DNA from: Pseudomonadota bacterium
GTDB lineage: Bacteria > Myxococcota > JACRCW01 > JAFGSX01
Length of the DNA stretch: 64,000 nucleotides
Direction of reading: 5' to 3'
Assembly: GCA_043821645.1 (NCBI GenBank)
Contig: JBDRCO010000063.1
Location: 1 to 64,000 of the forward strand
Within the stretch, counting starts at the first letter, position 1, and each line of letters begins with the position of its first letter. The notes below the pieces were generated by a model. The model ran no database searches, was not told the DNA's origin, and worked only from the letters and a program-made list of their open reading frames with translations. The position numbers and the translations under genes are program-made. Below, piece by piece: positions 11,089-58,496 of this stretch.

Positions 11089-11278
11089 TCGCGCCTCCTC
11101 TCGCGAGGGGGGATCGGGTCGTTCACGTCGAGACCTACTCCCGCCTGAACGGCTCCCGGAGTTGCCCCTCGCCTCCGCCGGAAGTCGAACCCCGATCGGG
11201 GTTGTATGGACAGGAGAATAGCAGGATGCGAGGTCGCGCACACCTGGACCGCGGTGGGGCAGCGCGTCGTGGAGCTGA

Positions 11279-39837: not shown

Positions 39838-40143
39838 GTGTTAAACGACCCGCGCAATGCTGACCTGGCGGCAGACCTGCTCAAGGCCATCGCCCACCCG
39901 ACGCGGCTGCGCATCGTGGCGGCGCTGGTGCACGGAGACCTGCACGTCGGTGGTCTGGCCGAACATCTGGGCCTCAAGCAACCCATCATCTCGCAGCAGC
40001 TCAAGATCCTGCGGCTCAAGGGTCTGGTCGATGTGACCCGCGCCAACGGCCTGGCCACCTACCGGATCATCGAGCCCCACCTCGAGACCATCGTCGGCTG
40101 CATGCAGCGCTGTCTGCTCAGCCGGCAGGAGAACCACCGATGA
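39838..40143 (+). CDS. ArsR/SmtB-family transcriptional repressor
   Basis: LKAIAHPTRLRIV, ISQQLKILR..GLV; C-terminal CxxxC; overlaps the psrA start. Confidence 0.9.
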   Translation: MLNDPRNADLAADLLKAIAHPTRLRIVAALVHGDLHVGGLAEHLGLKQPIISQQLKILRLKGLVDVTRANGLATYRIIEPHLETIVGCMQRCLLSRQENHR

Positions 40144-42392
40144 GCTTCTCCCGTCGTCAATTCATCCAGATCGGCGCCGGTGGCGTCGGTGCAGCCGCGG
40201 TGTCGGGACTGTCGACGAACTGGTGGGGCCTGGACCGCAATCCCGTTCCGGATCCCCAGACCGACGGCGAGCAGGTCATCCCGACCTTCTGCGAGCTGTG
40301 CTTCTGGAAGTGCGGTGTGCTGGCCCACGTCAAGGATGGCGTGGTGACCAAGCTCAAGGGCAACCCCGCCCACCCGCTGTCCCGGGGCCGCCTGTGCCCG
40401 CGCGGCGTCGGTGGCACGGGCCTGCTGTACGACCCCGATCGCCTGAAGAAGCCGCTCATCCGTGTCAACGCCCGCGGCGGCCAGGAGTTCCGGGAAGCGA
40501 GCTGGGACGAAGCCCTGGACCACATCGCCGAGAAGTTGGGCGAGGTGCGCCAGAAGCACGGCCCGGAGGCGGTGGCGCTGTTCTCCCACGGCTACGGCGG
40601 GTCGTGGTTCAAGCACCTGTGCAAGGCCTGCGGCACACCCAACATCAGCGCGCCGTCCTATGCCCAGTGCCGTGGCCCACGCGAGGTGGGCTACTACCTG
40701 ACCTTCGGCAGCGGCCTGGGATCGCCAGAGCCCCTGGACATCGAGAACGCTCGCTGCCTGGTGTTCCTGGGCTCGCACCTGGGCGAGAACATGCACAACA
40801 CCCAGGTGCAGGAGTTTGCCGAGGCCATCTCCCGCGGCGCCGAGCTGGTGGTGGTGGACCCGCGCTTCTCGACGGCCGCCGGCAAGGCGCGCTACTGGTT
40901 GCCCATCAAGCCCGGCACCGATCTGGCCTTGCTCCTGGCCTGGATGAACGTGATCCTCGAAGAGAAGCGCTACGACGCGGACTACCTGCAGAGCTTCGCC
41001 ACGGGTCTCGACGAGCTCAAGACGCACGTGGCGGACAAGACGCCGGAGTGGGCCTATCCCATCACCGGCATCCGCCCGGAGCTGATCCGCGAGACCGCGC
41101 GCTTCATCGCCTCGTTCAGACCCGCGACCTTGATCCACCCGGGCCGCCGCACCACCTGGTACGGCGATGACACCCAGCGCGGCCGCGCCATGGCCATCCT
41201 CACGGCCCTGTTCGGCGCCTACGGCCACCGCGGCGGCATCCTGATGACCTCGGCCATGGAGATCCCCAAGTTCCCGCTGAACAAGCCCTACCCCGAGCAC
41301 AAGGACATCGTGGACAGGCCCAAGCCCAGCATGTACCCGCTTGCCGACGAGGTGCTGGCCTCGGGCGTGTGCGACGCCAGCATTCCGGGCACCGCGGGGT
41401 ATGACGTCAAGGCCTGGATCGTCTATGGCACCAACCTGCTGCAGTGCCTGCCCAACCCCGAGCAGACCAAGAAGGCCATACAGGCGCTCGAGTTCATCGT
41501 GGCCATCGACGTGATGCCGTCGGAGATCTGTGGCTGGGCCGACGTGGTGCTGCCCGAGTGCACTTATCTGGAGCGTTGCGACGAGGTATGGGCGCCCGCC
41601 TACAAGCAACCCTTCCTGGCTGTGCGCCAGGCCGTGGTCGAACCCATGTACGAGTCCAAGCCCGGCTGGTGGATCGCCGCCGAGCTGGCCCGGCGCTCTG
41701 GCCACGGCGACTACTTCCCGTGGAAGGACAGCGTCGAGTACGCGATGGCGCGGGTGAAGGCTGCTGGTCTGGACTGCGACCAGCTCAAGAAGACAGGTGT
41801 GGCCCTGGGTAAGATCACGCCGACCTGCATCGAGGAGGGCTTGACCCCGACCTTTGACACGCCCAGCGGCAAGATCGAGCTGCACTCTCCGCAGCTCGCC
41901 GCCCTGGGCTTTGATCCCATCCCCAACTTCACACCGCCGGACGAACCGCCCCCGGGCATGTTCCGGTTGCTGTTCGGGCGTTCGCCCGTGCACACCTTTG
42001 GCCGCACCACCAACAACCCGGTGCTGACCAATCTGCAGGCCGAGAACGAGGTGTGGATCAACGCCGACGTGGCGCGGGAGCTGCCCGGTCTCGACGGACC
42101 GCTGCAGGACGGCGAACGCGTGGTGCTGGTCAACCAGGACGATGTGCGCTCGAACTCCGTGCGTGCCAAGGTCACCCAGCGCATCCGCGGCGACTGCGTG
42201 TACCTGGTGCATGGCTTTGGCCACACCGCGCCCGGACTGCGCTTCGCCCGAAACCGCGGTGCCAGCGATAGCGAGCTGGTCACCCGCTTCAAGGTCGATC
42301 CCATCATGGGCGGTACCGGCATGAACGTGAACTTCGTGCGCATCGAGCGCGCGCCCAAGGCGTCCACCGCCGAGAGCGGGAGGTCCGCATGA
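40140..42392 (+). CDS. psrA: Thiosulfate/polysulfide reductase catalytic subunit (bis-MGD, Tat)
   Basis: SRRQFI Tat signal; CELCFWKC...LCPRG FS0 motif; YAQCRG Mo-ligand Cys; GENMHN; HPGR; HTFGRT. Confidence 0.85.
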   Translation: MSFSRRQFIQIGAGGVGAAAVSGLSTNWWGLDRNPVPDPQTDGEQVIPTFCELCFWKCGVLAHVKDGVVTKLKGNPAHPLSRGRLCPRGVGGTGLLYDPDRLKKPLIRVNARGGQEFREASWDEALDHIAEKLGEVRQKHGPEAVALFSHGYGGSWFKHLCKACGTPNISAPSYAQCRGPREVGYYLTFGSGLGSPEPLDIENARCLVFLGSHLGENMHNTQVQEFAEAISRGAELVVVDPRFSTAAGKARYWLPIKPGTDLALLLAWMNVILEEKRYDADYLQSFATGLDELKTHVADKTPEWAYPITGIRPELIRETARFIASFRPATLIHPGRRTTWYGDDTQRGRAMAILTALFGAYGHRGGILMTSAMEIPKFPLNKPYPEHKDIVDRPKPSMYPLADEVLASGVCDASIPGTAGYDVKAWIVYGTNLLQCLPNPEQTKKAIQALEFIVAIDVMPSEICGWADVVLPECTYLERCDEVWAPAYKQPFLAVRQAVVEPMYESKPGWWIAAELARRSGHGDYFPWKDSVEYAMARVKAAGLDCDQLKKTGVALGKITPTCIEEGLTPTFDTPSGKIELHSPQLAALGFDPIPNFTPPDEPPPGMFRLLFGRSPVHTFGRTTNNPVLTNLQAENEVWINADVARELPGLDGPLQDGERVVLVNQDDVRSNSVRAKVTQRIRGDCVYLVHGFGHTAPGLRFARNRGASDSELVTRFKVDPIMGGTGMNVNFVRIERAPKASTAESGRSA

Positions 42393-42925
42393 CCCGCTAT
42401 GCCATGACCATGGATACCCGGCGCTGCGTCGCCTGCCAGGCCTGCGTGCTGTCGTGCAAGGCCGAGAACAAGGTGCCCGCCGAGGGCTTTCGCGACTGGG
42501 TGGTGCAGGTGACCAGCGGAAAGTTTCCGACGCTGCAGCAGGAGAATCGCTCCGAGCGATGCAATCACTGTGCGTCGCCCGCCTGCGTGGCGGCCTGCCC
42601 CACCGGTGCCAGCCACGTCGGCGAGGGTGGCACTGTGCTGGTCAACTACAACAAGTGCTCGGGCTGCAAGGCCTGCATCGCCGCCTGCCCCTACGGTGCG
42701 CGCTACGTGCACAGCGAGGGCTGGATAGACAAGTGCACCTTCTGCCTGCACCGCGTGGTCGAGGGCAAGAGGCCTGGCTGCGTGGAGATCTGTCCCACCG
42801 GCTCGCTGGTCTTTGGAGATCTCGACGACCCGGACAGCGAGGTGTCGAAGCTGCTGCGCGCGCGCGGCCACAAGGTGCTCAAGCCAGAACAGGGGCTGAA
42901 GCCGCAGATGTACTTCCTGACCTGA
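42389..42925 (+). CDS. psrB: Polysulfide reductase 4Fe-4S subunit (PsrB/NrfC/DmsB family)
   Basis: CVACQAC..C, CNHC..PACV..CP, CSGCKAC...CPY, KCTFC...C...CP. Confidence 0.9.
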   Translation: MTRYAMTMDTRRCVACQACVLSCKAENKVPAEGFRDWVVQVTSGKFPTLQQENRSERCNHCASPACVAACPTGASHVGEGGTVLVNYNKCSGCKACIAACPYGARYVHSEGWIDKCTFCLHRVVEGKRPGCVEICPTGSLVFGDLDDPDSEVSKLLRARGHKVLKPEQGLKPQMYFLT

Positions 42926-42964
42926 GTCCGGATGCGGGCCGACGACCCCGCGAGGAGAGGACGC

Positions 42965-43483
42965 ATGGAAACCAAGGAACAGAAATTCTGGAACCCCTAC
43001 CTGGCCGGCGTGGCACTGGGCCTGGTTCTCCTGGCCTCCTTTGTCATCATGGGTCAGGGCCTGGGGGCGTCGGGAGCGGTGTACCACGCAGGCGTCGCAG
43101 CCCTGGCCGCGGTGGCGCCTGACCACGTCGCCAGCAGCCCCTACATGGGCAAGCTCATCGCCGACGGCAAGAGTCCCTGGGACAACTTCTTCGTGTTCCT
43201 GGTGCTGGGTGCCTTCCTCGGCGGCGCGGTGTCGTCGTACGCCGCGGGACGCATGAAGCTCGGCGTGTACAAGGGACCGCGCATCAGCGTGCCCTGGCGC
43301 CTCACCCTGGCCCTCTCGGGTGGCATCCTGATGGGCTTCGCCGCGCGCTTGACCCGGGGCTGCACCTCGGGCCAGGCACTGTCGGGCGGCGCCATGCTGT
43401 CCGCGGGGAGCTGGATCTTCATGCTGTCGGTGTTCGCCGGCGGCTACGCGGTGGCGTACTTCATCAGGAGGGAGTGGATATGA
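42965..43483 (+). CDS. YeeE/YedE sulfur-transporter half-subunit
   Basis: WNPYLAGV, GASG, GGILMGFAARLTRGCTSGQAL. Confidence 0.88.
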   Translation: METKEQKFWNPYLAGVALGLVLLASFVIMGQGLGASGAVYHAGVAALAAVAPDHVASSPYMGKLIADGKSPWDNFFVFLVLGAFLGGAVSSYAAGRMKLGVYKGPRISVPWRLTLALSGGILMGFAARLTRGCTSGQALSGGAMLSAGSWIFMLSVFAGGYAVAYFIRREWI

Positions 43484-44694
43484 TCTTCCCCTTCGAGTCC
43501 CTCGTGGGCAGCCTGCACCAGGTTGGCCTGGTGGTCGGCGTGATGATCGGTTTCGGCTTTGGCTTCGTGCTCGAGCGCGCGGGTTTTGGCCGCTCGACCA
43601 AGCTGGCCGCGCAGTTCTACCTGTACGACATGACGGTGTTCAAGGTCATGTTCGGCGCCATCGTCACGGCCATGCTGGGTCTGGTGCTGGGCAACGGACT
43701 GGGCTTGCTCGACCTGGCCAGCCTGTCGGCGGGCGCGGTCTCCAGCACCTTCGTGTGGCCCATGCTCATCGGTGGCTTCGTGCTGGGCATGGGCTTCATC
43801 ATCTCGGGCTACTGCCCGGGCACCTCGCTGGTGGCCACGGCCTCGGGCAACGTGGACGGCCTGTTCACGGTCCTCGGTGTGGTCCTGGGCTCGCTGATCT
43901 TCGGCGAGGTCTACCCGGCCATCGAGGGCTTCTTCCTGTCCGGCAACCAGGGCCAGCTCTTCCTGTACCAGTGGCTGGGCGTGCCCCCGGTGGTGCTGGC
44001 CGGGATCGTCACCGTCGTCGCCATCGCCGCCTTCTTCGGCGCCGAGAAGGTCGAGAAGATCATGACCGCCCGCATCGCGGTGGCGCGCGAGGTGGTCGAC
44101 GAGGAACTGCGCAGCGCGCCGGTGCCTCGACGCTACGCGTTTGGATTTTTCGGCGGCACGCTGGCCGTGGCCCTGGTCACCCTGTTCCTGCCTGTGTCCG
44201 CGCCAGCCCGGGAGCGCCCCACAGATCACGCCCAGGTCGACGTGACCAGCCTGGCCCACCAGATCCTCGACACGCCGTGGAGCCTGCGCATCCTCGACGT
44301 GCGCGATCGCAAGGACTGTTTGGCCGAACGCGTGCCCGGCGCCGAGTGCGTGCCGGTCGCGGACCTGGACAAGCTGGGCCTGGGCTTCGCCGCCGGTCAG
44401 CGCACCCTGGTCGTGGTCGGTGATGCTGCGCTGGGCGAAGTGCCGCAGGAGGCCCTGGCGTATCCGGGCAAGGTGCGCCTGCTCCGGGGCGGCCATGGCG
44501 CCTGGCACGATTTCGCCCTGAGCGATCCCACACCCCCCGACGCCACCGCCAGCGCCGAGGTGCGTGACGCCTTCACCTTCAGAAGTGCCGTGCACGCGGT
44601 CATGACCGGCGCCCGGGCGGCTGCGCCACCACCGGCGGCCCCCGTCGAGGGATTGGTTCCGAAGAAGAAGAAAAAAGAGGGTGGCTGCGGCTGA
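43480..44694 (+). CDS. YeeE/YedE half-subunit fused to a rhodanese-like domain, with KKKKKEGGCG tail
   Basis: GFGFVLERAGF, F.LYD..VFKVMF, GYCPGT; ILDVRD..VPGA..L.GG..AW. Confidence 0.85.
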   Translation: MIFPFESLVGSLHQVGLVVGVMIGFGFGFVLERAGFGRSTKLAAQFYLYDMTVFKVMFGAIVTAMLGLVLGNGLGLLDLASLSAGAVSSTFVWPMLIGGFVLGMGFIISGYCPGTSLVATASGNVDGLFTVLGVVLGSLIFGEVYPAIEGFFLSGNQGQLFLYQWLGVPPVVLAGIVTVVAIAAFFGAEKVEKIMTARIAVAREVVDEELRSAPVPRRYAFGFFGGTLAVALVTLFLPVSAPARERPTDHAQVDVTSLAHQILDTPWSLRILDVRDRKDCLAERVPGAECVPVADLDKLGLGFAAGQRTLVVVGDAALGEVPQEALAYPGKVRLLRGGHGAWHDFALSDPTPPDATASAEVRDAFTFRSAVHAVMTGARAAAPPPAAPVEGLVPKKKKKEGGCG

Positions 44695-44720
44695 TCCACA
44701 CCCGCACCGCGGAGAGAGTG

Positions 44721-45674
44721 ATGCCCGAAATCGACATGGTCCGGCACAGCCTCCAGATCGACCCCCAGCTGACCATCTGGGGCTGGGAGATCCCGCTGTA
44801 CCTCTTCCTGGGAGGCCTCACCGCAGGCCTCATGATCCTGGGTGCGGCGCTGCGCCTGCGCACGGCGGACGATGCTGCGCCACGCTGGGAGCGCTGGCTG
44901 CCCTTCGCGGCGCCGGTGTTGATCAGTCTGGGCATGCTGGCTCTGTTCCTCGACCTCGCCCACCGCGAGCACGTGTGGCGCTTCTACATGGCGTTCAGAC
45001 CCACCTCACCCATGTCCTGGGGCGCGTGGATCTTGATCGCCATCTACCCCGCGACCCTGCTGCTCGGCCTGCAAGGTTTGCAGGACAGCGAGGTGAGCTG
45101 GTTGCGCGCCCTCGCGCCGGTGCGCGCCCTCAAGCTCGACGGTGTGATCACCTGGGCCCGGGAGCTGGCCACGCGCCAGGCTCGCATGCTGTGGTGGAGC
45201 AACATCGTGCTCGGTGTGGCCCTGGGCGCGTACACGGGTTTGCTGCTGGGGACCTTGGCCGCGCGTCCGGCCTGGAACAGCGTCGTGCTGGGTCCCCTGT
45301 TCCTGGTCTCGGGTCTGTCCACGGGCGCGGCCCTGATGATGCTGTTCCCGCTGGGAGAGCGCAGTCATCACCTGCTGCGACGCTGGGACGTGCTCGCCAT
45401 CGTGGTCGAGGTGCTGCTGCTGGGCCTGTTCTTCCTGGGCCTGTCTGCCAGTGCCGGCCCCGCGGGTGATGGCGCCGTGGCCATGTTCTTTGGCGGACGC
45501 TTCACGGCGGCGTTCTGGTCGCTGGTCGTGGCTGCGGGCCTGATCGTGCCCCTGGCCCTGGAGCTGATCGAGGCCAGGCGGGGCTTGCGACCGACGCTGG
45601 TGGCGCCGGCCCTGATCCTCGTCGGTGGGCTATCGCTGCGCTGGATCCTGGTGGCAGCGGGACAGGTGAGCTGA
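44721..45674 (+). CDS. psrC: Polysulfide reductase membrane subunit (NrfD/PsrC family)
   Basis: WGWEIPLYLFLGGL, LFLDL, TSPMSWGAW, YTGLLL, FLVSGLSTG, GGLSLR. Confidence 0.88.
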   Translation: MPEIDMVRHSLQIDPQLTIWGWEIPLYLFLGGLTAGLMILGAALRLRTADDAAPRWERWLPFAAPVLISLGMLALFLDLAHREHVWRFYMAFRPTSPMSWGAWILIAIYPATLLLGLQGLQDSEVSWLRALAPVRALKLDGVITWARELATRQARMLWWSNIVLGVALGAYTGLLLGTLAARPAWNSVVLGPLFLVSGLSTGAALMMLFPLGERSHHLLRRWDVLAIVVEVLLLGLFFLGLSASAGPAGDGAVAMFFGGRFTAAFWSLVVAAGLIVPLALELIEARRGLRPTLVAPALILVGGLSLRWILVAAGQVS

Positions 45675-45709: not shown

Positions 45710-46633
45710 TCACGAGTCCCGGTCACAGCCCAAAGATGCACCGACCTGCCGCGAACCTGACCTGGGCGGTGCGCGCAGCAGCACAAGCTCCGAGTAGAGC
45801 CCATCGATCTGATCGGCCCTCAAGCCCCGGGACAGGAACACGCCCTGGCGGTCCCAGCGCACCAGGGACAGCGGCGGGAGTTCCAGTCCTGCCACGAAGC
45901 GGGACGGAACATCGAGCATGCGAACCGCCAGTGCCCGGTGCAGGGCGCGCTTGATGACGTCGACACAGGACAGGAACAGCTCTCCACTCGCGATGTGGTG
46001 AAAGGTCGCGGTGGCGAGGCCCCGCAGCCCGGGATCGATGGTGAACACCGCGTAGCAGTCCCCCCGACGAGTTCTGGCCAGCACGTGATGACCCTCGAGT
46101 CCGACATGATCACGGTGGAGCTGCTGCTGCGCCGGGGTGAGCGAGCGCACCATCCTGCCGTCGTCGACGAAGACCCCGGCGCCCTCTCGACGGCGGCGGG
46201 CCAGTCCCGGCAACACGGGCATGAGCACCCGGCTGGTGTCCAGGGGGGCGAAGCCCAGGCGCCCCCACAGGGGGCGAACGTGCGGCGCGGCGGTGAAATC
46301 GGTGATGGTGTAACCCTGGGCGGCCAGCCTGAAGAGGGGAAACAGCAGCAAGGAACTCTGCGCGCGAAAGGCCGGATCCACGGCCCAGGTGGACAGGCTG
46401 CAGAACTTGTGAACGACCCCATCCACGGGGCGCCGGCTGTAGATATGGCCGATGAAACCCACGATCCTGCCCTCGTCGACCATGCGGTAGCCGCAGCAGC
46501 CCTCGTCGGTGCTCCAGCGCTGTGTGAACAGCTGGGCTATCGTGGCGTGGTCGAGATCCGGGAAATGACGGATCAGGAAGGTGCTGATCGGAGCCTGATC
46601 GCGAGCCGTGGCCGGGTGGATCGATGCCGTCAT
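45710..46633 (-). CDS. GNAT-fold transferase-like protein
   Basis: GRIVGF, LSTWAVDPAFR motif-A-like segment, LWGRLGF; GGGAGG RBS. Confidence 0.6.
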   Translation of the reverse strand: MTASIHPATARDQAPISTFLIRHFPDLDHATIAQLFTQRWSTDEGCCGYRMVDEGRIVGFIGHIYSRRPVDGVVHKFCSLSTWAVDPAFRAQSSLLLFPLFRLAAQGYTITDFTAAPHVRPLWGRLGFAPLDTSRVLMPVLPGLARRRREGAGVFVDDGRMVRSLTPAQQQLHRDHVGLEGHHVLARTRRGDCYAVFTIDPGLRGLATATFHHIASGELFLSCVDVIKRALHRALAVRMLDVPSRFVAGLELPPLSLVRWDRQGVFLSRGLRADQIDGLYSELVLLRAPPRSGSRQVGASLGCDRDS

Positions 46634-46671
46634 GGCAGGTACCCTCCCCTGCGCGCCACCTGCGAGCAGGT

Positions 46672-46944
46672 TCAGGGGCGCGTCCCGCTCGCCGCGACCT
46701 GGGCCACGAGGTGAGCCAGGGATTCAATGGTGTCGAGCGCCTCCAGCGGGAACTCCACGGTGAACAGATCCACTCCGTAACTGTCGGCCACGAACACGAC
46801 GGTCTCGACGATGCCAAAGGAATCGACGAAGAGCTCGCGCACCGGGTTGGTGGACGCGTGGATCTCGCTGGCGCGGTCCGGATAGGTCTCGCGGTAGAAG
46901 GCGAGCAGACCGTCGAGCACCTGCCGGTGGTCCACCGCGCTCAT
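46672..46944 (-). CDS. Stand-alone acyl/peptidyl carrier protein
   Basis: 90 aa acidic protein with LFVDSFGIVE phosphopantetheine-attachment Ser motif and L.TI.SLA helix; ATGA overlap with the PLP gene. Confidence 0.8.
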   Translation of the reverse strand: MSAVDHRQVLDGLLAFYRETYPDRASEIHASTNPVRELFVDSFGIVETVVFVADSYGVDLFTVEFPLEALDTIESLAHLVAQVAASGTRP

Positions 46945-48092
46945 GGGGTCCCCGCGCCTGGTCTCGCCTTCACAGCTTCGAGCGCCTGCGCGAGGTCCGC
47001 GATCAGATCCGCCGCACTCTCGATGCCCACAGACAGCCGCAGCAGCGACGGAGTGAGTCCGATCGTGGCTTTCTCCTCGGGCGTCATGGAGAGGTGGCTC
47101 CCGGAGTACGGTATGGCCACGGCCGAGGTCACGCAGGCCAGGGACGTCCCTCGATCGAAGAGCTGGAGCGCGGCGACAAAGCTCCCGACGGCACTCTCGC
47201 CCGGGTCCTTCAAGGTCAAAAAGATCATGCCGCCGTAGTCGCGCAGCTGAACGCCGTCCACCGTCGGCTGCATCACCTCGGCCACCATCGCGTGAGACGA
47301 CAGGAAGCGCACGATCTGCCGCGTGTTGTCGATGTGGCGCTGCAATCGGAGTTCCAGCGTCTGCAGGCTGCGACGAAGCAGCCAGGCGGCAAAGGGATCT
47401 GGCACGGCCCCGGCATAGAACCGGAACTTGCGGAGCTGCTCGACGATCGTCGGGGACGCGGCGCAGGCGATGCCGAGGATGAGGTCGCTGTGTCCCGAGA
47501 AAAACTTGGAGGCACTGTAGACGACGATATCCGCGCCGTGCTCGAGGGGTCTTTGCAGCAGTGGCGTGGCCCAGGTGTTGTCCACCACGAGGAGCGCGTC
47601 AGGACAGCGCGCCTTGAAAGCCGAGGCGATGGCCCGGATATCGAGGGTCTTCAGGAATGGGTTGGTCGGGGTCTCCAGCACGATCATACGAGGGTGTGCG
47701 TCCAGTGCTGATCGCAGTTGCCCAGGATCCCCCAGATCGACGACGTGCAGGTCTATCCCCAGATGGGCACACTGGTCCTGGATGAAACGGTACGAGCAGC
47801 CATAGATGAGGCGGTTGACGACGAGAACCTCGCCGGGCCGCAGGAGAGATAGGACGGCAGAGATACTGGCCATGCCCGCGCTGTACAGGACGCTGCCCGC
47901 CGCTCCGTCGAGGGCACAGAAGAGCGTTTCGACCTCCTCGAAGTTGGGGTTGCTGTTGCGCGTGTAGAAGTACGGATCTCCGGAACGGAAGGCGCTGGCC
48001 TGGAAGATGGGGGTCGACACCGGGTCGGCATCCTGGTGCTTGATCCGGTGTCGCACCAGCAGCGTCCCCGGGCTTCTCGCAACGCGGCTCAC
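46941..48092 (-). CDS. PLP-dependent Cys/Met-metabolism enzyme (cystathionine gamma-lyase/synthase family)
   Basis: TPIFQASAF, YTRNSNP, SAGMAS, LETPTNP, VVDNTWATP, YSASKFFSGHSD (PLP Lys), LRLSVGIE. Confidence 0.9.
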   Translation of the reverse strand: MSRVARSPGTLLVRHRIKHQDADPVSTPIFQASAFRSGDPYFYTRNSNPNFEEVETLFCALDGAAGSVLYSAGMASISAVLSLLRPGEVLVVNRLIYGCSYRFIQDQCAHLGIDLHVVDLGDPGQLRSALDAHPRMIVLETPTNPFLKTLDIRAIASAFKARCPDALLVVDNTWATPLLQRPLEHGADIVVYSASKFFSGHSDLILGIACAASPTIVEQLRKFRFYAGAVPDPFAAWLLRRSLQTLELRLQRHIDNTRQIVRFLSSHAMVAEVMQPTVDGVQLRDYGGMIFLTLKDPGESAVGSFVAALQLFDRGTSLACVTSAVAIPYSGSHLSMTPEEKATIGLTPSLLRLSVGIESAADLIADLAQALEAVKARPGAGTP

Positions 48093-49489
48093 GAGGCCTC
48101 ACCTGTGCCCGGCGCATCTCCTTGCACGGGGTAGTAGGCCCGATCGAGCAGCCCCAGCACCCGCGGGCTCGCGGCACGATGGTAAAGCCGCAGGCCCCGC
48201 TCATCGGGTCGAGATCTCGACACCATGAAGCGGGGAACCCCGCAGCGGCGTGTCAAACCCAGCGGCTGGCCCTGAGCATCGATGGCGACGTAGCACAGGG
48301 GCTCCGAGGACGTGTTCTCGACGTGCACGCAGGTGATGTCGCCACTCCAGGTGTAGTCCACCTGTCTCCAGGTTTGCAGGTCCTGCACCTCACGGGGTGG
48401 GACGATGTTGTCCGCCGGAGTGGGATCCCAGAACACGATGTCGGGTTGTCCGCCGCAGGCCGGGCAGGTGTGATCGGCGCGCAGATGGTTCGTGAGGGTG
48501 AGGCCGTAGCGCTCGATCAGGGGCTCACCGCAGTCGCAACGCGTGGTGTTGCCCTCTCCCTGCAACAGGTTGCCGGTGTAGACATGGCGGAGTCCCAGCG
48601 CGAGAGCAGACCGTCGTGCACGGTGCAGGAGCTCCACCGAGGTCCGCTCGACGCCGGTGTAGCGATGATCCGGATGAAAGCGCACGTAGTGCAGCGGCAC
48701 CCCGGGTCCCAGCTGTTCAAGAACCCAGCGCGCCACCTTGTCTGTCTCGCGGAGGGTATCGTTGCGCCCTGTGACGACCAGGTTGGAGATCTCCAGGTGC
48801 CGTCCACTGCGCTGAACCTGCCGGATGGCATCCAGCACCGGAGGCAGGCGGCCCCCGGTGTACTTCCGGTAGTACTCGCGGCTCATGGACTTCAGCGAGA
48901 TGCTGAACACGTCGATGACGTCGATGAGTTCGTCCACAGCCCGCGGGCTGATGTAGAACGCGGACTTGTACACGTTGCGCAAGCCGTGCTGCCGGGCCAG
49001 ACGCGCCGCGTCCAGCACGAACTCGTGCCACACCACAGGGTCGTCGTAGGTCCAGCACAGGATGCGGATGCCGGCTTCCAGCGCGCGGCGAACCAGGTCC
49101 TCGGCGCTGTACAGCAGGATGTCCACGTCCTCGGTGAGGACGGCCTGGCTGGTATGCCAGTTGTGGCAAAAATCGCAGCGCAGGTTGCAGCCGATATTGC
49201 CAACGGAGAGCGTCCGCTCACCCGGGCAGTAGTGCCAGATCGCCTCGGTCTCGATGGCATCCTGGGTGATCTGAACGCTCTTGCCATAGTTGAGCGTGAC
49301 CAGGGAGCCCTCCTGGTTCGCCCGCACCTTGCAGTAACCCAGGTGGCCGCGACGCACGTGGCACTGGCGCGGACACAGCTCGCAGATCACCTCGCCCTTT
49401 CCGTCGTCAGAAGGTCGCCACAAGCGCGCCGGATGCGACGTCGCGAGGAGCTTGGCCGGGAGCCTGCTGCCCTTCCAGGTTTCTTTCAC
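48089..49489 (-). CDS. Radical SAM enzyme, AmmeMemoRadiSam (AmrS)-like but divergent, with C-terminal extension
   Basis: CELCPRQC...C, GCNLRCDFCHNW..SQ (CxxxCxxC), LHYVRFHP, VYTGN, C.C...LIER, C..C; GTGA overlaps at both ends. Confidence 0.85.
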   Translation of the reverse strand: MKETWKGSRLPAKLLATSHPARLWRPSDDGKGEVICELCPRQCHVRRGHLGYCKVRANQEGSLVTLNYGKSVQITQDAIETEAIWHYCPGERTLSVGNIGCNLRCDFCHNWHTSQAVLTEDVDILLYSAEDLVRRALEAGIRILCWTYDDPVVWHEFVLDAARLARQHGLRNVYKSAFYISPRAVDELIDVIDVFSISLKSMSREYYRKYTGGRLPPVLDAIRQVQRSGRHLEISNLVVTGRNDTLRETDKVARWVLEQLGPGVPLHYVRFHPDHRYTGVERTSVELLHRARRSALALGLRHVYTGNLLQGEGNTTRCDCGEPLIERYGLTLTNHLRADHTCPACGGQPDIVFWDPTPADNIVPPREVQDLQTWRQVDYTWSGDITCVHVENTSSEPLCYVAIDAQGQPLGLTRRCGVPRFMVSRSRPDERGLRLYHRAASPRVLGLLDRAYYPVQGDAPGTGEAS

Positions 49490-51048
49490 AGCGCCGCCAG
49501 TGCAGCCCGATCGACCTTGCCGTTGGGGCTGCGAGGGAATTCGTCCAGGACGAGAACGGTGGCAGGCACCATGTAAAGAGGAAGTGTCGATAGCAGGTGC
49601 TCCCGCAGCACTGCTGGTCGTGGCGCCTGGCCCGTTCTCGGAACGATGAACGCCACCAGACGTGGTAGCTGGTCCGGGCCGACCTGGAGCAGTGCCACCG
49701 CATCGGCCACGTCGGGGTGCTCGCACAGCACGCTCTCGATCTCACCGAGCTCGATGCGCTGACCGCGCAGCTTGACCTGCTGATCGAGGCGACCCAGGAA
49801 CTCGATGTTTCCGTCCGCAAGAAAGCGCGCCAGGTCACCAGACCGGTACAGGCGGGCCCCGGGTGTCGCGTCAAAGGGATGCGGCACAAATTTCTGTGCC
49901 GTGAGCTCGGGCCGGTTGAGATAGCCGCGGGCGAGACCCACACCGCCGACGCACAGTTCACCCTCGACACCGACCGGGACCGGATGCAGCTCGGGATCGA
50001 GGACATAGAGCTGGAGGTTGGCCAAAGGACGACCGATGGGGGGACCTTGCGTGCCGTAGCATGCGTCCTCGTGGGTGAGGTGGCCAGACACCGTGACCGT
50101 GGCCTCGGCCGGGCCGTAGCAATTGAAGAAGCGCCGCCCGGGCGCCCAGCGTCTCACATTTTCCGTCGTGACGCGCTCTCCCACGGCGATCACGGTGCGC
50201 AGCTGCACAAGATCGCGGCTCGGCATCACCGCCAGCAGCGAGGGCGGGATCAGGGCCATGGTGATGCCCTGCTGCCTGAGCAGCTGCGGAAGTTCCAGGG
50301 CGATGAGACGCGGGTCCAGCCTGGGCAGGACCAGCCGGGCGCCCGCGGCCAGGGCCATGAAGATCTCCCACACCGACACATCGAAGCTGGGGGATGCAAG
50401 CTGCAGCAGGACCGTATTCTCGTCGACGTCAAACATCCGGTTCGAGGCTTCGATGAGGTTGGCCAGCCCCCGGTGCTCGAGGAGAATGCCCTTGGGGCGT
50501 CCGGTCGAACCCGAGGTGTAGATCACGTAGGCCAGGTCCCCTGGCCCGACCCGGGTCGCCGGTGCCACACCCGGCTGCTGCTGGATGCGATCGCTGTCCG
50601 TGTCCAGCCTGACGACGGTACCCGACACGAAGGGTGCCTGGGTGAGCAGGCCCTGCGTGGTCACCAGGAGTCGGGGCCGTGCGTCGTTCCAGATGTGCTC
50701 CAGACGGGTACGTGGGTAGGCGGGATCCAGGCACAGGTACGCCCCGCCGGCCTTGAGCACGGCCAGGATGGCGATGACCATGTCGAAGGACCGCTCCAGG
50801 AAAATGGCCACGATGTCGTCGCCAGCCGTCCCCTCTTGCACCAGCAGCTGCGCCAGCTGGTTGGAGCGCCGGTCCAGCTCGCCAAAAGACATCGAGCCCT
50901 GCGCCGACACGAGCGCGATGGCCTGCGGGCGCTCTGCCACGCGGGCCCCGAAGGCGCCAAGGATGCAGCCCTGACCCACCCCGACCGTGGCGGTAGCGTT
51001 CCACTCGTACAGGATCTGGTGTCGTTCCTGGGGTGTGAGCACGGACAT
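49486..51048 (-). CDS. Stand-alone NRPS-type amino acid adenylation domain
   Basis: LKAGGAY, LAYVIYTSGSTGRPKG, FDVS, YGPAE, GELCVGGVGLARGYL, YRSGDL, GRLDQQVKLRGQRIELGEIE, NGKVDR; ends right after A10 with no T or C domain. Confidence 0.92.
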   Translation of the reverse strand: MSVLTPQERHQILYEWNATATVGVGQGCILGAFGARVAERPQAIALVSAQGSMSFGELDRRSNQLAQLLVQEGTAGDDIVAIFLERSFDMVIAILAVLKAGGAYLCLDPAYPRTRLEHIWNDARPRLLVTTQGLLTQAPFVSGTVVRLDTDSDRIQQQPGVAPATRVGPGDLAYVIYTSGSTGRPKGILLEHRGLANLIEASNRMFDVDENTVLLQLASPSFDVSVWEIFMALAAGARLVLPRLDPRLIALELPQLLRQQGITMALIPPSLLAVMPSRDLVQLRTVIAVGERVTTENVRRWAPGRRFFNCYGPAEATVTVSGHLTHEDACYGTQGPPIGRPLANLQLYVLDPELHPVPVGVEGELCVGGVGLARGYLNRPELTAQKFVPHPFDATPGARLYRSGDLARFLADGNIEFLGRLDQQVKLRGQRIELGEIESVLCEHPDVADAVALLQVGPDQLPRLVAFIVPRTGQAPRPAVLREHLLSTLPLYMVPATVLVLDEFPRSPNGKVDRAALAAL

Positions 51049-51292
51049 CGCGGGCTCGCCTCGGCTCGATGCTCCGGCGGTGTGGTTCTCCTCCCGCACC
51101 CCTCGGGCGCCGCGTTCCATCGCGCTGGATGCCCGCAGGCTCATGCCGCTCCCGTCGTCAGGACGACAGGAATATACCGTGTGCCTCGCACCATGGCCAC
51201 CACTCCCGGGACAGGTCCAGCGCCCTGACAAGAGGTCCTGCCGGCGAGCCTCGGCACCAGCAGGCGTGGTTGGCCAGGCGGGGCTGCGAGGG

Positions 51293-52264
51293 TCAAGAAC
51301 GGTCCCGGCGCGGGCGAGCGACGTGGCCGCGGGAGACACCCCGCACCTCGGCGTCGTTGCCGTACAGAAAACGGATCGCGATCTCGGTGGCGCGAGAGCA
51401 ATACAGGGGTTGGGCGTGACCCACCTTGTTGATGAAGAAGTTCTGGGCCTCACGGTACGGCAACTCGGCGTTCTCCGGCGGCAGGATCATGGGGTCGAAG
51501 TTGTAATGCACCGACGCGAACTGGATCTGAGGCGGCAGGGGCATGGCGTTGAGCGCGGTCAGGAAATCACTGCCCGGAAGCAGCTGCAGGCCACTTTCGC
51601 CCCGCACCTGGCGTGCATAGGGGAGCAGCCCGATGGCCTTGCGCAGACCCTTGTGGGGGATGGCGGCAAGCCCCACCCAGGTGCCCCGATGCGGTGACGA
51701 CAGGAACAGGCACTTGGTGATGGGAAGTTCGCTGGCGAGACCGTGCTGCACCAGGGTGCGGATGATGATGCCGCCCTGGGAGTGACCGACCAGGTAGATC
51801 TCGTCGGCGTGGAGCTGCTGCTGGATCTGGCGCAGCCTGGCCTCGAGCTGCTGCGCCGAGAGCTGGATGTCCTGGCTATAAGGGAAGTCGCCGTAGATGT
51901 AGGTGAAGGCATCGAACACGTCGATACCAAGGTACCGCTCGAGGCGCTGAAAACCCGACGCGAGCTGCATGTAGCCGGGCACGAACACCACCAGCCTGCG
52001 CTGTCCCTGGAAGGCTTCCAGGCGGCGACGGTGATAGTCCTCGTCATACAGAACCTTCTCCGAGACATGGATGGTGCCGTCGATCAGATTCTTGCCCACG
52101 AAGTAGGCTTCCTCGACCACGCTCAGACCCATGTGCAGGGTGCTGCGCAGGCGCTCGGGAGGCAGCAGGAAGGCGTTCAAGGCACGCAGACCCCGGACCA
52201 GCTTGGCCGGCACCCGGTCCAGCTTGCGAATGGCGTCGCTGTCGGAACGGTACCGGGTGCTCAA
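51293..52264 (-). CDS. Alpha/beta-hydrolase (lipase/esterase-like)
   Basis: VVFVPG, LVGHSQGG nucleophile elbow, SSPHRGT, GSDFL..LN, GH. TTG start overlapping the aminopeptidase stop is inferred (alternative: the ATG of MGLSVVEE). Confidence 0.8.
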   Translation of the reverse strand: MSTRYRSDSDAIRKLDRVPAKLVRGLRALNAFLLPPERLRSTLHMGLSVVEEAYFVGKNLIDGTIHVSEKVLYDEDYHRRRLEAFQGQRRLVVFVPGYMQLASGFQRLERYLGIDVFDAFTYIYGDFPYSQDIQLSAQQLEARLRQIQQQLHADEIYLVGHSQGGIIIRTLVQHGLASELPITKCLFLSSPHRGTWVGLAAIPHKGLRKAIGLLPYARQVRGESGLQLLPGSDFLTALNAMPLPPQIQFASVHYNFDPMILPPENAELPYREAQNFFINKVGHAQPLYCSRATEIAIRFLYGNDAEVRGVSRGHVARPRRDRS

Positions 52265-53448
52265 GGTACAACCCACAGGCCGCCCTGCACCGAGAGCCGC
52301 GTGTCGTCGAGAAACACGGCTCGCCCCGCTCCTCCGCCCCGGAAGTCGGTGACGATGTCCACGTGCTGGGCGCTGGTGTTGAACCTGCCCTCGGCCCCGG
52401 CGGTGGCGAGCGCGGCCTTGCCGGCATCGCTGCCCGGGTCCTCGTGATAGCACTCGGGATAGCTGGCGCCGATGGCGATGTGCAAGGTCCCACCCACCTT
52501 CTCGACGAACAGGGGGTGGGTCAGGACCTGCTTGAGGCCGTTGTTCATGCCCAGGGCGACCTCGCCCAGGCGGTGCGAGCCCTCGTCGGTCTCGATGATC
52601 TTGGCCAGGACATCCTGGCCCTGCACAGCGCTGTAGCGCGTGATCACGCCACCCTCGAGACACAGGTGCACACCCTGGATGCGTGTCCCCGAGTAGGTCA
52701 CGGGCAGGTCGACGAAGATCTCACCCTCGACGCTGCGTGCGTCGGGGCTGGTGAACACCTCGCCATCCGGAAAGTTGCGCTTGCCGGTGCACTTGACGAT
52801 GCGCTGGCCGGTGATGTCCAGGCGCAGCTCGAGCTCACGTCCGTCGGGCGCGCGGCTCTGCACCCGCACGGTGCGCGTCTGCCGCAACTTCTGATACAGC
52901 GGCTCCTCGACCTGCTCGAGCGCGCGGGGATCCGTCACCGACGCCGACACCACGGCATCGGCATAGGTGTCGAGGCTCAGGCCGTCCATGGCGGCGAAGG
53001 CCTCGGTGGGAAACAGGGTCAGCACCCAGGGCTTGGCCAGGCGGATGTTCTTGGTTGGTTCGTCCGCGGTCATCAGGGCCTGCGCCGTGTCGGCGGGAAG
53101 GTCTCCGAACAGGGCGGGCTGTTCGGCTCCCAGGATCTCGATGTACTTGGTCATGGCGTGGTAGCGCGCCTGCATCCAGTCCGGCACGCGCTGGATCTGT
53201 TCGACGCTGCCATGACGACAGATCGCGGCACCGAAGACCTTGCCTCGATCGTTGTCCGGCGGCACCAGAAACACGTCGGCGATACCGCCCGCAGCGAACA
53301 CCCTCTCCTGCAGCACGCTGAGCAGCGGCCAGGTGCAGTGCTCACCCTTGATCAGGACCACGTCGTCGGAGCGAATCCCGCCCAGCGAGTACTCGAGCAG
53401 ATATCCGGCCCAGGTCTCCAGCTTGGTGCGGGAAATCTCCAGCGGCAT
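52261..53448 (-). CDS. Aminopeptidase, M29 (AmpS/AmpT) family
   Basis: NFPDGEVFTSP, LGEVALG, LFVEKVGGTLHIAIGASY, N.SAQHVD; AGGAGG RBS before ATG 53448. Confidence 0.9.
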   Translation of the reverse strand: MPLEISRTKLETWAGYLLEYSLGGIRSDDVVLIKGEHCTWPLLSVLQERVFAAGGIADVFLVPPDNDRGKVFGAAICRHGSVEQIQRVPDWMQARYHAMTKYIEILGAEQPALFGDLPADTAQALMTADEPTKNIRLAKPWVLTLFPTEAFAAMDGLSLDTYADAVVSASVTDPRALEQVEEPLYQKLRQTRTVRVQSRAPDGRELELRLDITGQRIVKCTGKRNFPDGEVFTSPDARSVEGEIFVDLPVTYSGTRIQGVHLCLEGGVITRYSAVQGQDVLAKIIETDEGSHRLGEVALGMNNGLKQVLTHPLFVEKVGGTLHIAIGASYPECYHEDPGSDAGKAALATAGAEGRFNTSAQHVDIVTDFRGGGAGRAVFLDDTRLSVQGGLWVVP

Positions 53449-53518
53449 GCACAACCTCCTGTTGCCACGGTCGTCGTGGCGCGACGTCGCGTGCAGTCTA
53501 TGGGCCGAGACCCGACTG

Positions 53519-55102
53519 TCAAGGTGGCGAAGAAATCTGCAAGGAGTCCGCCGTCGAGAGACCATCGAGCAGCCCTTGCAGTTCGGCGGCCCGTTCGAGA
53601 TGACCCTGGCGCCGGTGCAGCGCCGCAGCCAGCGCATACACACGGCGCGCCTCGGGTAGCTGCTGGTGCTGGCCACGCTCGAGGACCTCGACGGCCTCGT
53701 CGAGGGCGCGCAGGGCGGCTTCCCGGTCGTGGCCGTGCTGCTGCAGGTCGGCGACATTGAGCAGGGTTGTTGCAAGGTCGGGGTGATCCGGTGGCCGCGT
53801 CCGCCGGCACAGCTCGAGGGCGCGCTGGGCGAGGGGGAGCGCATCCTCGACGCGACCGCCGCGCAGCTCAGCCTGGGCCAGATTGCTATACACGAGGACC
53901 AGATCCGGGTGGTCAGGTGGCGCACCCAGCTCGAGGGTTCGCCGGGCGCGCTGCAGGCTATCGCGGGCGCCTGCCAGATCACCGGTCAGCAGCTGCGCCG
54001 TGCCCAGGGTGTTGAGGCTGCGGGCCAGACGAACCGGATCGACCGGCTGCACGCTTTCATAGGCCGCCAGAGCTCGACGTGCGCTGACCATGGCGCGCTT
54101 CGCACGACCCTGGCGCACCTGCACGCTGGCCAGCGTGTCCAGGGTCGCCGCGGTGGCAGGATGCTGGTCTCCCCACACTTTCTCGTGAATCCGCAAGGCG
54201 CGCTCGGCCATGTCCTCGGCATGTTCGCAGTCACCCTGGGCGCAGCGACTGCGGGCCAGGTTGCTCAGCGCCACGGCCACGCTCGCATGATCGAACCCCA
54301 GGCTTTGTTCGTAGATGGTGAGAGCACGGCGCAGCAGGGCGTCGGCCTGACGGTAGTCCCCGTCGTGAAAGGCCACGCGTGACATGTTGTTGAGGGTGGT
54401 GGCCACCGCCGGATGATCCGGCCCCAGGGTCTTTTCCTTGATCTTGAGAGAGCGCACGAAGCGCGGCCGCGCGCGCGCGTGGTCACCGCGATCGCAGTAC
54501 AGGTTGCCCAGGTTGTTCAGGGACACCGCGACCTCGAGATGGTCGGGTCCCAGGGCGTCTTCCTGGATGGCGAGGGCACGCCGGAACAGGGGCTCTGCGT
54601 CGTCGAGGCGACCCTGGGCTCGCAGCACTTCCCCCAGATTGTTCAGTGCGGTGGCCACGTCAGGATGGTTGGGTCCCAGAGCCTCCTGCCGCAGGGCCAG
54701 GGCGCGCGCGTACTGCGCCTGGGCCCTGATGAGGTTCCCGTTCTCGGTCAGGATGCTGGCGTGCAGGAACAGTCGCTCGGCCAGCTCGACGGGAACCTCG
54801 GCGGCCGCGGGCTCCAGCACCTCGACGCTCTGCCTGGCGAGGTCCTCCGATTCGCGCCAGCGAGGTCCCGCCCGCAGGACCCGGGCTCCGTGCGCGAGCT
54901 CCTGCGACCGGGACAGGCGCTGCTCCTGTGTGGCACCCGGGAGATCTTCATGCGCCGCGCTCCCGGTGCTGGCGCAGCCCGGGGACCCGAGCATGATCGC
55001 GATGGCGACGGCAGCCAGGGCGGTCGTCGAGCCACCTGCCAGGTGGTCTTTGCATCGCCGGTACACCTCTCTATGAATGGGCCCTCTGCCGCGTGGGGTC
55101 AA
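53519..55102 (-). CDS. Tetratricopeptide-repeat protein (kinesin-light-chain-like 42-aa repeats), probable lipoprotein; start uncertain
   Basis: Repeated LG.DHP.VA..LNNL...G....A..L..RAL.I.E units; hydrophobic stretch ending SPGC. Confidence 0.85.
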   Translation of the reverse strand: MTPRGRGPIHREVYRRCKDHLAGGSTTALAAVAIAIMLGSPGCASTGSAAHEDLPGATQEQRLSRSQELAHGARVLRAGPRWRESEDLARQSVEVLEPAAAEVPVELAERLFLHASILTENGNLIRAQAQYARALALRQEALGPNHPDVATALNNLGEVLRAQGRLDDAEPLFRRALAIQEDALGPDHLEVAVSLNNLGNLYCDRGDHARARPRFVRSLKIKEKTLGPDHPAVATTLNNMSRVAFHDGDYRQADALLRRALTIYEQSLGFDHASVAVALSNLARSRCAQGDCEHAEDMAERALRIHEKVWGDQHPATAATLDTLASVQVRQGRAKRAMVSARRALAAYESVQPVDPVRLARSLNTLGTAQLLTGDLAGARDSLQRARRTLELGAPPDHPDLVLVYSNLAQAELRGGRVEDALPLAQRALELCRRTRPPDHPDLATTLLNVADLQQHGHDREAALRALDEAVEVLERGQHQQLPEARRVYALAAALHRRQGHLERAAELQGLLDGLSTADSLQISSPP

Positions 55103-57809: not shown

Positions 57810-58496
57810 ATGAGACTTTCCGTCGTCATCCCGGTGTTCAATGAGGTCGAGACCATCGAGCTCATCGTCCAGCACGTCCTCGACACACCCTGGGAGAAGG
57901 AGATCCTGCTCATCGACGACGGATCCACCGACGGCACCCGCGCCAAGCTGCGGGAACTGGACGCGATCGATGGCGTGCGGGTGCTGCTGCACGAGGTCAA
58001 TCGGGGCAAGGGCGCCGCGCTGGCGACAGGATTTGCCGCCGCCACGGGGGACATCGTGCTGGTCCAGGACGCGGACCTGGAATACGACCCGCACGACTAC
58101 GGCAAGCTGTTGCAGCCCATCCTCGACGGCAAGGCCGACGTGGTCTACGGCTCGCGCTTCATCGGTAGCGACTCGCACCGCGTGCTGTACTTCTGGCACT
58201 CCATCGGCAACCGGGCCCTGACCGTGATCTCCAATGCCTTCACCGACCTCAACCTGACCGACATGGAGACCTGCTACAAGGTCTTCAGGCGCGAGGTCCT
58301 GAGCTCCATCACCGTCGAGGAGGCGCGCTTCGGCTTCGAGCCCGAGATCACCGCCAAGGTGGCCAGGGGACGCTGGCGCATCTTCGAGGTCGGCATCTCG
58401 TACAACGGCCGCACCTACGAGCAGGGCAAGAAGATCGGCTGGAAGGATGGCGTGCGAGCGCTGTACTGCATCGTCAAGTACAACACCCGTGGCTAG
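57810..58496 (+). CDS. Glycosyltransferase family 2 (DPM1/polyprenol-phosphate glycosyltransferase-like)
   Basis: [59 protein letters not shown]. Confidence 0.95.

Follow-up and report, generated by a model that had tools for sequence, protein, structure and literature searches.

A five-gene cassette without a condensation domain joins an extended radical SAM enzyme to a predicted tandem-GNAT protein in a Myxococcota genome

What is made, and onto what is it attached, by an operon that places a radical S-adenosylmethionine (SAM) enzyme and a pyridoxal 5′-phosphate (PLP) enzyme between a stand-alone adenylation (A) domain and a small carrier protein, and that ends in a GNAT-fold protein? This question is raised by a cassette at positions 45710–51048, on the minus strand, of the first 64,000 nucleotides of contig JBDRCO010000063.1 (assembly GCA_043821645.1, named Pseudomonadota bacterium and placed in the Myxococcota by GTDB); this whole stretch is referred to below as the window. 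We found that the cassette joins two previously unannotated enzyme families, an extended radical SAM subfamily with PLP-enzyme partners and a carrier-associated tandem-GNAT family. With moderate confidence, we propose that the radical SAM and PLP enzymes supply a non-standard amino acid, that the A domain loads it onto the carrier and that the tandem GNAT transfers it to an acceptor.

The cassette consists of five intact minus-strand open reading frames (ORFs), and the window has a G+C content of 64–70%. In the order of transcription, the genes encode an A domain of the nonribosomal peptide synthetase (NRPS) type (49486–51048; 520 residues from the ATG at 51048), the radical SAM enzyme (48089–49489; 466 residues, with a GTG start that overlaps the stop codon of the A-domain gene), the PLP enzyme (46941–48092; 383 residues), the carrier protein (46672–46944; 90 residues) and a 307-residue protein, X307 (45710–46633), whose fold was assigned from its predicted structure. 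The first four genes are coupled by stop/start overlaps of four nucleotides (GTGA at 49486–49489, GTGA at 48089–48092 and ATGA at 46941–46944), and a spacer of 38 nucleotides, which contains the Shine-Dalgarno-like sequence GGGGAGGG, separates the carrier stop (46672) from the ATG of the X307 gene (46633). The five-gene operon is thus intact and translationally coupled. An earlier reading made from the sequence alone (hereafter the sequence-only reading) had described these five genes with their overlaps and the 38-nucleotide gap, and inspection of the ORFs and junctions bore it out. It had also described the cassette as free of condensation, ketosynthase and thioesterase domains; none was found in the five proteins by Pfam and NCBIfam scans, and no condensation domain was found among the window ORFs scanned.

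The radical SAM enzyme is the first of the two components that set the cassette apart. It matches the radical SAM family (PF04055, 63.5 bits against a cutoff of 29.5), carries the CX3CX2C cluster motif as CNLRCDFC, and scores above the cutoff of the AmmeMemoRadiSam model (TIGR04337, 285.5 bits against 220) over residues 22–348 only. The remaining part, residues 350–466 (48092–48442, minus strand), comprises about 120 extra residues that ordinary AmmeMemoRadiSam homologs do not match. The model of this C-terminal domain is a seven-strand beta-sandwich with a predicted local distance difference test (pLDDT) score of 76.6. The domain ends in a conserved LLDRAxYP motif, and W381, H389, R420 and D449-R450-A451 are invariant in the extension across 14 full-length relatives. 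Fold searches with the domain returned generic beta-sandwich matches only (best Z 6.6; Atlas TM about 0.5), and a word-indexed search with the same region returned only the query itself (1 match among 121 candidates). An exhaustive HMMER search of a representative library gave 5757 matches to the AmmeMemoRadiSam family at E ≤ 0.001, and among the 150 best representatives the C-terminal domain was reached in 19, namely 10 full-length proteins and 5 fragments by HMMER and 4 more by BLASTP. The extension marks a rare subfamily. Whole-genome searches recovered the full-length extended enzyme from 3 of the 401 genomes searched in the window's phylum, its own genome included, from 2 of the 208 searched in one family, both already counted in the phylum search, and from 2 of the 401 searched in the phylum to which the genome of L008 (one of the loci with X307 relatives described below) belongs.

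The cassette enzyme shares with AmmeMemoRadiSam proteins the core of residues 22–348, the N-terminal Cys motif and CX3CX2C, but differs from them by the C-terminal beta-sandwich, by the lack of an AMMECR1 or Memo neighbor and by the recurrence of PLP-enzyme neighbors. In the source genome, AMMECR1 and Memo are both encoded on contig C20, with AMMECR1 also on C76 and Memo also on C111, and neither is encoded on the window's own contig (C63); the cassette enzyme therefore lies outside the system from which TIGR04337 takes its name. On C20, AMMECR1 and Memo are apparently fused in a single frame of 596 residues. The genome also encodes two further AmmeMemoRadiSam-type paralogs without the C-terminal extension (C72:61097–62098 and C43:149601–150614; 41% and 38% identity), the latter with one or two in-frame TGA codons depending on the search.

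The gene directly downstream encodes a clear member of the Cys/Met-metabolism PLP enzymes (gamma-family, fold type I; PF01053, 315.8 bits). The substrates of gamma-family PLP enzymes are free amino acids with a sulfur or oxygen leaving group, and the reaction takes place at C-beta or C-gamma. The cassette enzyme falls below every NCBIfam equivalog cutoff (best PRK07503, 279.6 bits against 666; TIGR01328, 251.5 bits against 549.7) and is about equidistant from solved methionine gamma-lyases (MGLs) and a cystathionine gamma-synthase (CGS), at 221–224 bits, with the P. putida MGL at 223. In the alignment with MGL, K196 (within SASKFFSGHSD) falls on the PLP lysine and R352 on the carboxylate arginine, and the motif YGC (in YGCS) is as in P. 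putida MGL, whereas CGS has YGG; this motif is the sole MGL-like feature to be set against the equivalog test. The enzyme therefore resembles MGL, CGS and cystathionine gamma-lyase in fold family, PLP lysine, carboxylate arginine and the MGL-type YGC, but differs from them in missing the equivalog cutoffs, in the coupling of its gene to a radical SAM gene and in its grouping with orthologs from elsewhere: by sequence, the PLP enzymes of the window and of the loci L028, L042 and L043 appear to form an ortholog group of their own. The sequence-only reading had compared the enzyme with BesB, a repurposed PF01053 member; lying at about the same distance from methionine gamma-lyases as from cystathionine gamma-synthases, the enzyme lends this analogy no specific support. 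Complex prediction for the radical SAM and PLP enzymes, run without controls, scored 0.00 in both runs and gave no answer either way.

The association of these two enzymes recurs outside the window. In all 4 other genomes (L042, L043, L046 and L047), a PLP enzyme is encoded beside or near the extended radical SAM enzyme. L042 and L043 belong to the window's phylum, and in both an ortholog of the cassette PLP enzyme (49–51% identity to the window enzyme) is encoded directly 3′ of the radical SAM gene (45–47%). The pair stands alone in L042, where genes for a LysE-type exporter and a gamma-glutamyltransferase are transcribed away from it and a P450 gene is transcribed toward it; in L043 it heads a string that continues with an IlvE-type transaminase (319 bits; cutoff 279), a 239-residue protein, an acyl-CoA ligase and an amidohydrolase. 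No carrier, NRPS A domain or GNAT was detected in L042 or L043, either by tblastn with the window proteins or by Pfam scans of selected ORFs. L046 and L047 belong to another phylum and have a class-V aminotransferase, 72% identical between both, at 0.7–2 kb from the radical SAM gene. The 239-residue neighbors in L043 and L047 are unrelated to each other. Two further links tie an adenylating enzyme to this type of radical SAM enzyme, one through a neighboring gene in L043 and one through fusion in P0016, a 933-residue protein in which the extended radical SAM enzyme is joined to a PaaK/F390-synthetase-like adenylating enzyme (NCBIfam matches below cutoff, best 113.9 bits). The PLP enzymes encoded beside or near the extended radical SAM enzyme, and its fusion to a ligase, would fit a part in the chemistry of amino acids or 2-oxo acids. 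In L047 the gene lies within a compact small-molecule cluster (L047:7061–19512) that encodes a cupin, a short-chain dehydrogenase/reductase, the class-V aminotransferase, a ketosynthase, a nitroreductase, a carrier and a 2-oxoacid:ferredoxin-oxidoreductase-like protein.

The second distinctive component is X307, which has no match in Pfam or NCBIfam at E values up to 0.01, the Acetyltransf families included. Its structural model (pLDDT 85.5; predicted template modeling score, pTM, 0.82) matched Eis-type tandem GNATs in Foldseek (E = 2e-10, probability 1.00), and comparison with three tandem GNATs (VIA, an independent aligner) gave Z values of 13.8–14.9 over 256–261 residues. According to its model, X307 is a tandem GNAT, and the GNAT label given in the sequence-only reading is upheld in this form by the predicted structure, not by sequence profiles. 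X307 shares two fused GNAT domains with Eis, glucosamine N-acetyltransferase, MAB_4324 and N-myristoyltransferase (Z 12–15 over about 256–269 residues), but differs from them in sequence (6–16% identity), in having an IDxLYSE motif of its own, invariant at the C-terminus of its family, and in the genomic company of carriers and their loading enzymes rather than of acyl-CoA metabolism. The gene is single-copy in the source genome. A single-domain GNAT (Acetyltransf_1) encoded at 10489–11241 on the minus strand of the window, by an M3 oligopeptidase and an amino-acid permease, is unrelated to X307. The family is rare: a word-indexed search of 5.8 billion proteins returned 5 others, and a search of one genome for each of 185,579 species identified relatives in 17 loci, at 25–36% identity, spread over at least seven named phyla.

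Around these 17 loci, 118 of the 146 selected ORFs were scanned, followed by the five longest of those initially omitted. A carrier-loading enzyme was encoded within 5 kb of the GNAT gene in 10 of the 17 loci: an AMP-binding enzyme in six (L002, L005, L007, L009, L012 and L016), an aaRS-like amino acid-[ACP] ligase in L008, FkbH in L001 and FabH in L006 and L011. Carrier proteins were detected beside the relatives in L008, L009 and L011. The cutoff of TIGR03098, an exosortase-A-associated ligase, was exceeded in L009 and L016 (750.8 and 760.2 bits against 592), and that of TIGR03099, an exosortase-A-associated decarboxylase, in L007, L009 and L012. Glycan or envelope genes accompanied the relatives in 11 of the 17 loci; they encode glycosyltransferases, proteins of the Wzx, Wzm/Wzt and Wza types, polysaccharide deacetylases, a Kdo transferase, LpxL and proteins of the sulfatase/phosphodiesterase type. 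On the long ORFs adjoining the relatives, Pfam detected no NRPS or polyketide synthase, and BLASTP comparison of the unannotated neighbors among themselves and with the ligase half of P0016 gave no match at E ≤ 1e-4. Since the relatives adjoin carrier loaders in 10 of the 17 loci, a role for X307 as an acyl- or aminoacyl-carrier-dependent transferase would fit.

Two of these loci are of separate interest. In L011 (6093–10756), genes for a split transketolase, FabH, a short-chain reductase and a 72-residue carrier precede that of the X307 relative, and a polysaccharide deacetylase gene adjoins; the set resembles a pathway that would yield a short hydroxyacyl- or ketoacyl-carrier as donor. In L005 (5767–12546), from an Olavius-symbiont genome, the relative lies between lipid A/core genes (Kdo transferase, LpxL-type acyltransferase and GT4) and an AMP-binding enzyme, a context that suggests modification of lipopolysaccharide.

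The remaining two genes of the cassette would provide the loading step. The A domain belongs to the NRPS amino-acid adenylation family (TIGR01733, 456.2 bits against a cutoff of 317.4, residues 54–452; PF00501, 263.6 bits; PF13193, 46.1 bits), and among solved structures it comes closest to NRPS A domains, such as those of LgrA, TycA and GrsA. Domains of this type activate amino acids as adenylates and attach them to holo-carrier proteins as thioesters. The stretches YTSGSTGRPKG, FDVSVWE, YRSGD and NGKVDR, visible in the translation, correspond to NRPS core motifs. At the GrsA pocket positions, the residues read D-V-W-L-I-V-C-V-T-K, with the alpha-amino-binding Asp and the A10 Lys present; the pocket, read from the sequence rather than by a prediction tool, looks apolar. 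The top match to LgrA was rejected as a sign of glycine specificity: its 618.8 bits are the sum of two stretches in the LgrA chain, and the score is therefore uninformative on this point. Translation may instead begin at either of two in-frame ATGs farther upstream, near 51144 and 51120.

The 90-residue protein appears to be a weak but real carrier protein. In an hhalign comparison with the carrier proteins encoded beside X307 relatives, it aligned with a probability of 96.4% (E = 1.1e-9, 64 columns), DS to DS, and Ser42 in FVDSFG, a sequence kept in L028, is the candidate phosphopantetheine site. NCBIfam acyl carrier protein (ACP) families matched at E values of 5e-5 to 3e-3, all under cutoff. 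The label of carrier protein in the sequence-only reading therefore stands as far as remote homology and the DS site go, but not by Pfam and NCBIfam cutoffs.

The closest counterpart of the second half of the cassette is L028, a metagenome contig of 1767 bp with the genes for the PLP enzyme, carrier and GNAT in the same order as in the window. The end of its PLP enzyme is 69% identical to that of the window (residues 201–358), its carrier 40% and its GNAT 49%. Because L028 has diverged to this extent, the shared order, albeit a single instance, argues for selection on the arrangement.

Together, these observations suggest the following scheme, in which all of the chemistry (substrate, product and acceptor) is what we infer from sequence; the comparative context thus lends partial support to the inference in the sequence-only reading of an amino acid made, loaded and transferred by the cassette. 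In the first step, the extended radical SAM enzyme and the MGL-like PLP enzyme would act as a two-enzyme unit on free rather than carrier-bound substrates, a reading suggested by the occurrence of the pair with transaminases, an exporter and ligases where no carrier was found. Radical SAM enzymes initiate radical chemistry through the 5′-deoxyadenosyl radical. The two cassette enzymes would make or edit a small amino acid, or the corresponding 2-oxo acid, probably starting from Met, homocysteine or a homoserine-type precursor. In the second step, the A domain would adenylate this amino acid and attach it through a thioester bond to the phosphopantetheine arm of the 90-residue carrier. That the product of the radical SAM and PLP enzymes is indeed the substrate of the A domain is a tentative element of the scheme, and in our estimate it would sooner prove wrong than right. 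In the third step, to judge by fold and context, X307 would move the aminoacyl group from the carrier to an amine or hydroxyl acceptor. An aminoacyl-carrier donor is suggested because the relatives of X307 accompany carriers and loaders and because the carrier gene directly precedes the GNAT gene in both the window and L028. By analogy with the contexts of X307 relatives, the most likely acceptor would be a glycan or lipid of the envelope, with a small molecule as the alternative.

Several results weigh against this scheme. No glycan or lipid gene adjoins the cassette in the window, the nearest glycosyltransferase gene lying 7 kb away (57810–58496). GNATs normally use acyl-CoA, and this is compatible with all of the data presented here. 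The carrier scores 14.7 bits on the PP-binding model (PF00550), below the cutoff of 20.8. No recognizable loader was found in 7 of the 17 X307-relative loci, two of which are on contigs of 2.6 and 5.2 kb, no radical SAM or PLP gene was found in any of the 17, and no extended radical SAM enzyme was found in the five genomes with X307 relatives that were searched. L046 and L047 have no gamma-family PLP gene; the pairing of the radical SAM enzyme with a gamma-family PLP enzyme is therefore not universal, since the partner PLP enzymes there belong to another fold family. Finally, the full five-gene set was seen in no other locus found, L028 being only 1767 bp long and ending inside the PLP gene. 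Conserved co-occurrence of the cassette genes, which the sequence-only reading had called for, thus extends to the PLP enzyme, carrier and GNAT in L028 and to the radical SAM and PLP enzymes in L042 and L043, but not to the full set.

The two alternatives that survive best are both unlikely in our view. One supposes that two unrelated modules share an operon, a metabolic pair formed by the radical SAM and PLP enzymes and a set of A domain, carrier and GNAT that handles an ordinary amino acid. The pair would then serve the metabolism of sulfur amino acids, SAM by-products or 2-oxo acids. Each module is indeed found elsewhere without the other, and the A-domain pocket indicates no specific unusual substrate. 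Such a division is, however, difficult to match with the position of the radical SAM and PLP genes between the A-domain and carrier genes, with four-nucleotide overlaps on both sides, with L028, where the PLP gene still adjoins the carrier and GNAT genes at 40–69% identity, or with P0016, in which the same type of radical SAM enzyme is fused to an adenylating enzyme.

The other supposes that an antimetabolite is made together with self-protection: the radical SAM and PLP enzymes would produce a toxic amino-acid analogue, an acyl-CoA-dependent GNAT would detoxify it, much as PAT/Bar N-acetylates phosphinothricin, and the A domain and carrier would contribute to a peptide built elsewhere. Acetyl-CoA is the typical donor of GNATs, the best structural matches of X307 (Eis and glucosamine N-acetyltransferase) are acetyl-CoA enzymes, and the L042 pair lies beside a LysE-type amino-acid exporter. 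This explanation must nevertheless account for the X307 family occurring beside carriers and loaders in 10 of the 17 loci, and directly after a carrier gene in the window and L028, and for the sequence R-A-Q-S-S-L in X307, where a pyrophosphate loop of the form R/Q-x-x-G-x-G/A is usual. A peptide assembled elsewhere also fits poorly with the absence of a condensation domain from the window ORFs scanned.

Less probable still is tailoring on the carrier, the function that the sequence-only reading had associated with a free A domain and carrier: the A domain would load a standard amino acid, the radical SAM and PLP enzymes would modify it while tethered, and the GNAT would off-load it. Free pairs of A domain and carrier that present amino acids for tailoring are well established, and the beta-sandwich of the radical SAM enzyme could dock a partner. 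However, L042 and L043 both have the radical SAM/PLP pair, yet no carrier was found there by tblastn with the window's carrier and the Pfam scan of selected ORFs, which makes on-carrier action by the pair unlikely. In addition, a gamma-family PLP enzyme needs a free alpha-amino group and a free carboxylate; the cassette enzyme keeps the carboxylate arginine, and an acid tethered as a thioester has no free carboxylate. Decay of an NRPS cluster to an inactive remnant without a product is very improbable, because, although the A domain starts with what reads by eye as a C-A-linker-like stretch (ERHQILYEWN) and the C and TE domains are absent, all five frames are intact with their catalytic motifs kept, the G+C content at third codon positions (GC3), 0.81–0.88, is near that of neighboring genes, and synteny is kept in L028.

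The proposed scheme, that of a free amino acid made by the radical SAM and PLP enzymes, loaded on the carrier and transferred by X307, has partial precedents. DltA and DltC serve the D-alanylation of teichoic acids, and AlmE, AlmF and AlmG attach glycine to Vibrio cholerae lipid A. By analogy, the logic of the cassette would be that of Dlt/Alm-type aminoacylation, varied: a stand-alone adenylation enzyme and a small dedicated carrier, followed by a transferase that, as proposed for the cassette, decorates an envelope polymer or lipid. The differences are clear. On the DltA model PRK04813, the A domain reaches 264 bits, short of the cutoff of 476; the transferase is predicted to be a soluble tandem GNAT, as opposed to MBOAT (DltB/DltD) or an LpxL-type acyltransferase (AlmG), and no gene for MBOAT, DltD or an LpxL-type protein was found in the cassette or its flanks; the cassette alone embeds radical SAM and PLP genes; and no envelope gene adjoins it. 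A second comparison is with the exosortase-A-associated sets defined by TIGR03098 and TIGR03099, directly beside which distant relatives of X307 are encoded in L007, L009, L012 and L016. Both share a logic of ligase, carrier, PLP enzyme and GNAT-fold protein, but the A domain of the window is of the NRPS type and scores 215.2 bits on TIGR03098 against a cutoff of 592.35, its PLP enzyme belongs to the gamma-lyase family and is no decarboxylase, and a radical SAM enzyme is added. Among the papers found in literature searches, judged by titles and abstract openings, none describes a pathway with this gene combination, in agreement with the sequence-only reading, which had not recognized one, and none lists a function for AmmeMemoRadiSam enzymes; the term occurs in 6 papers, but in the title or abstract of none.

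The surroundings of the cassette add little to these arguments. The 244-nucleotide intergenic region 5′ of the A-domain gene (51049–51292) is probably the promoter region; a sigma-70-like match at 51199–51171 is a weak call, because one match was found where 0.6 is expected by chance. Upstream on the same strand lie genes for an alpha/beta hydrolase with a GHSQGG elbow (51293–52260; Palm_thioest, 32.9 bits; Abhydrolase_1, 23.8 bits; no NCBIfam match; no signal peptide evident by eye), an M29 aminopeptidase (52261–53982) and a TPR_12/TPR_10 protein (53519–55102). These three could be accessory genes, for example for a thioesterase or peptidase step, or unrelated. GC3 values of 0.81–0.88 in the cassette genes and 0.80–0.90 in the flanking genes are not decisive on transfer, and a comparison of the flanks (M29 peptidase and NrfD) with the three nearest genomes (G001–G003) gave no match at E ≤ 1e-20 and was uninformative on insertion. 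On the other side, a polysulfide/thiosulfate-reductase-like operon on the plus strand (40140–45674) converges on the cassette, with 35 nucleotides between the stop codons; it encodes an ArsR regulator, a molybdopterin oxidoreductase, a 4Fe-4S protein and NrfD, with two Sulf_transp proteins inserted between the subunits. MYXO-CTERM matches above cutoff numbered 29 in the source genome and 0 in 14 control genomes, so that membership in the Myxococcota is most likely on this evidence too.

The reach of the cassette itself is limited because the full set is very rare; both of its component families are wider. The analysis defines an unannotated tandem-GNAT family that accompanies carrier-loading systems in surface-glycan loci of many phyla, exosortase-A-associated sets included, and the cassette offers a handle with which to test one branch of the AmmeMemoRadiSam family. 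It is possible, though on balance doubtful, that two things hold jointly: that the extended radical SAM enzyme and its PLP partner are a portable route to a new non-proteinogenic amino acid, and that the X307 family consists of carrier-dependent (amino)acyl transferases that decorate envelope glycans or lipids. If so, this would be the first function for any branch of the large orphan AmmeMemoRadiSam family of radical SAM enzymes, and the X307 family would be a soluble counterpart to DltB and AlmG. Should the scheme proposed above hold, the cassette would provide both a new amino-acid building block and a new way to attach amino acids to cell-surface or small-molecule acceptors.

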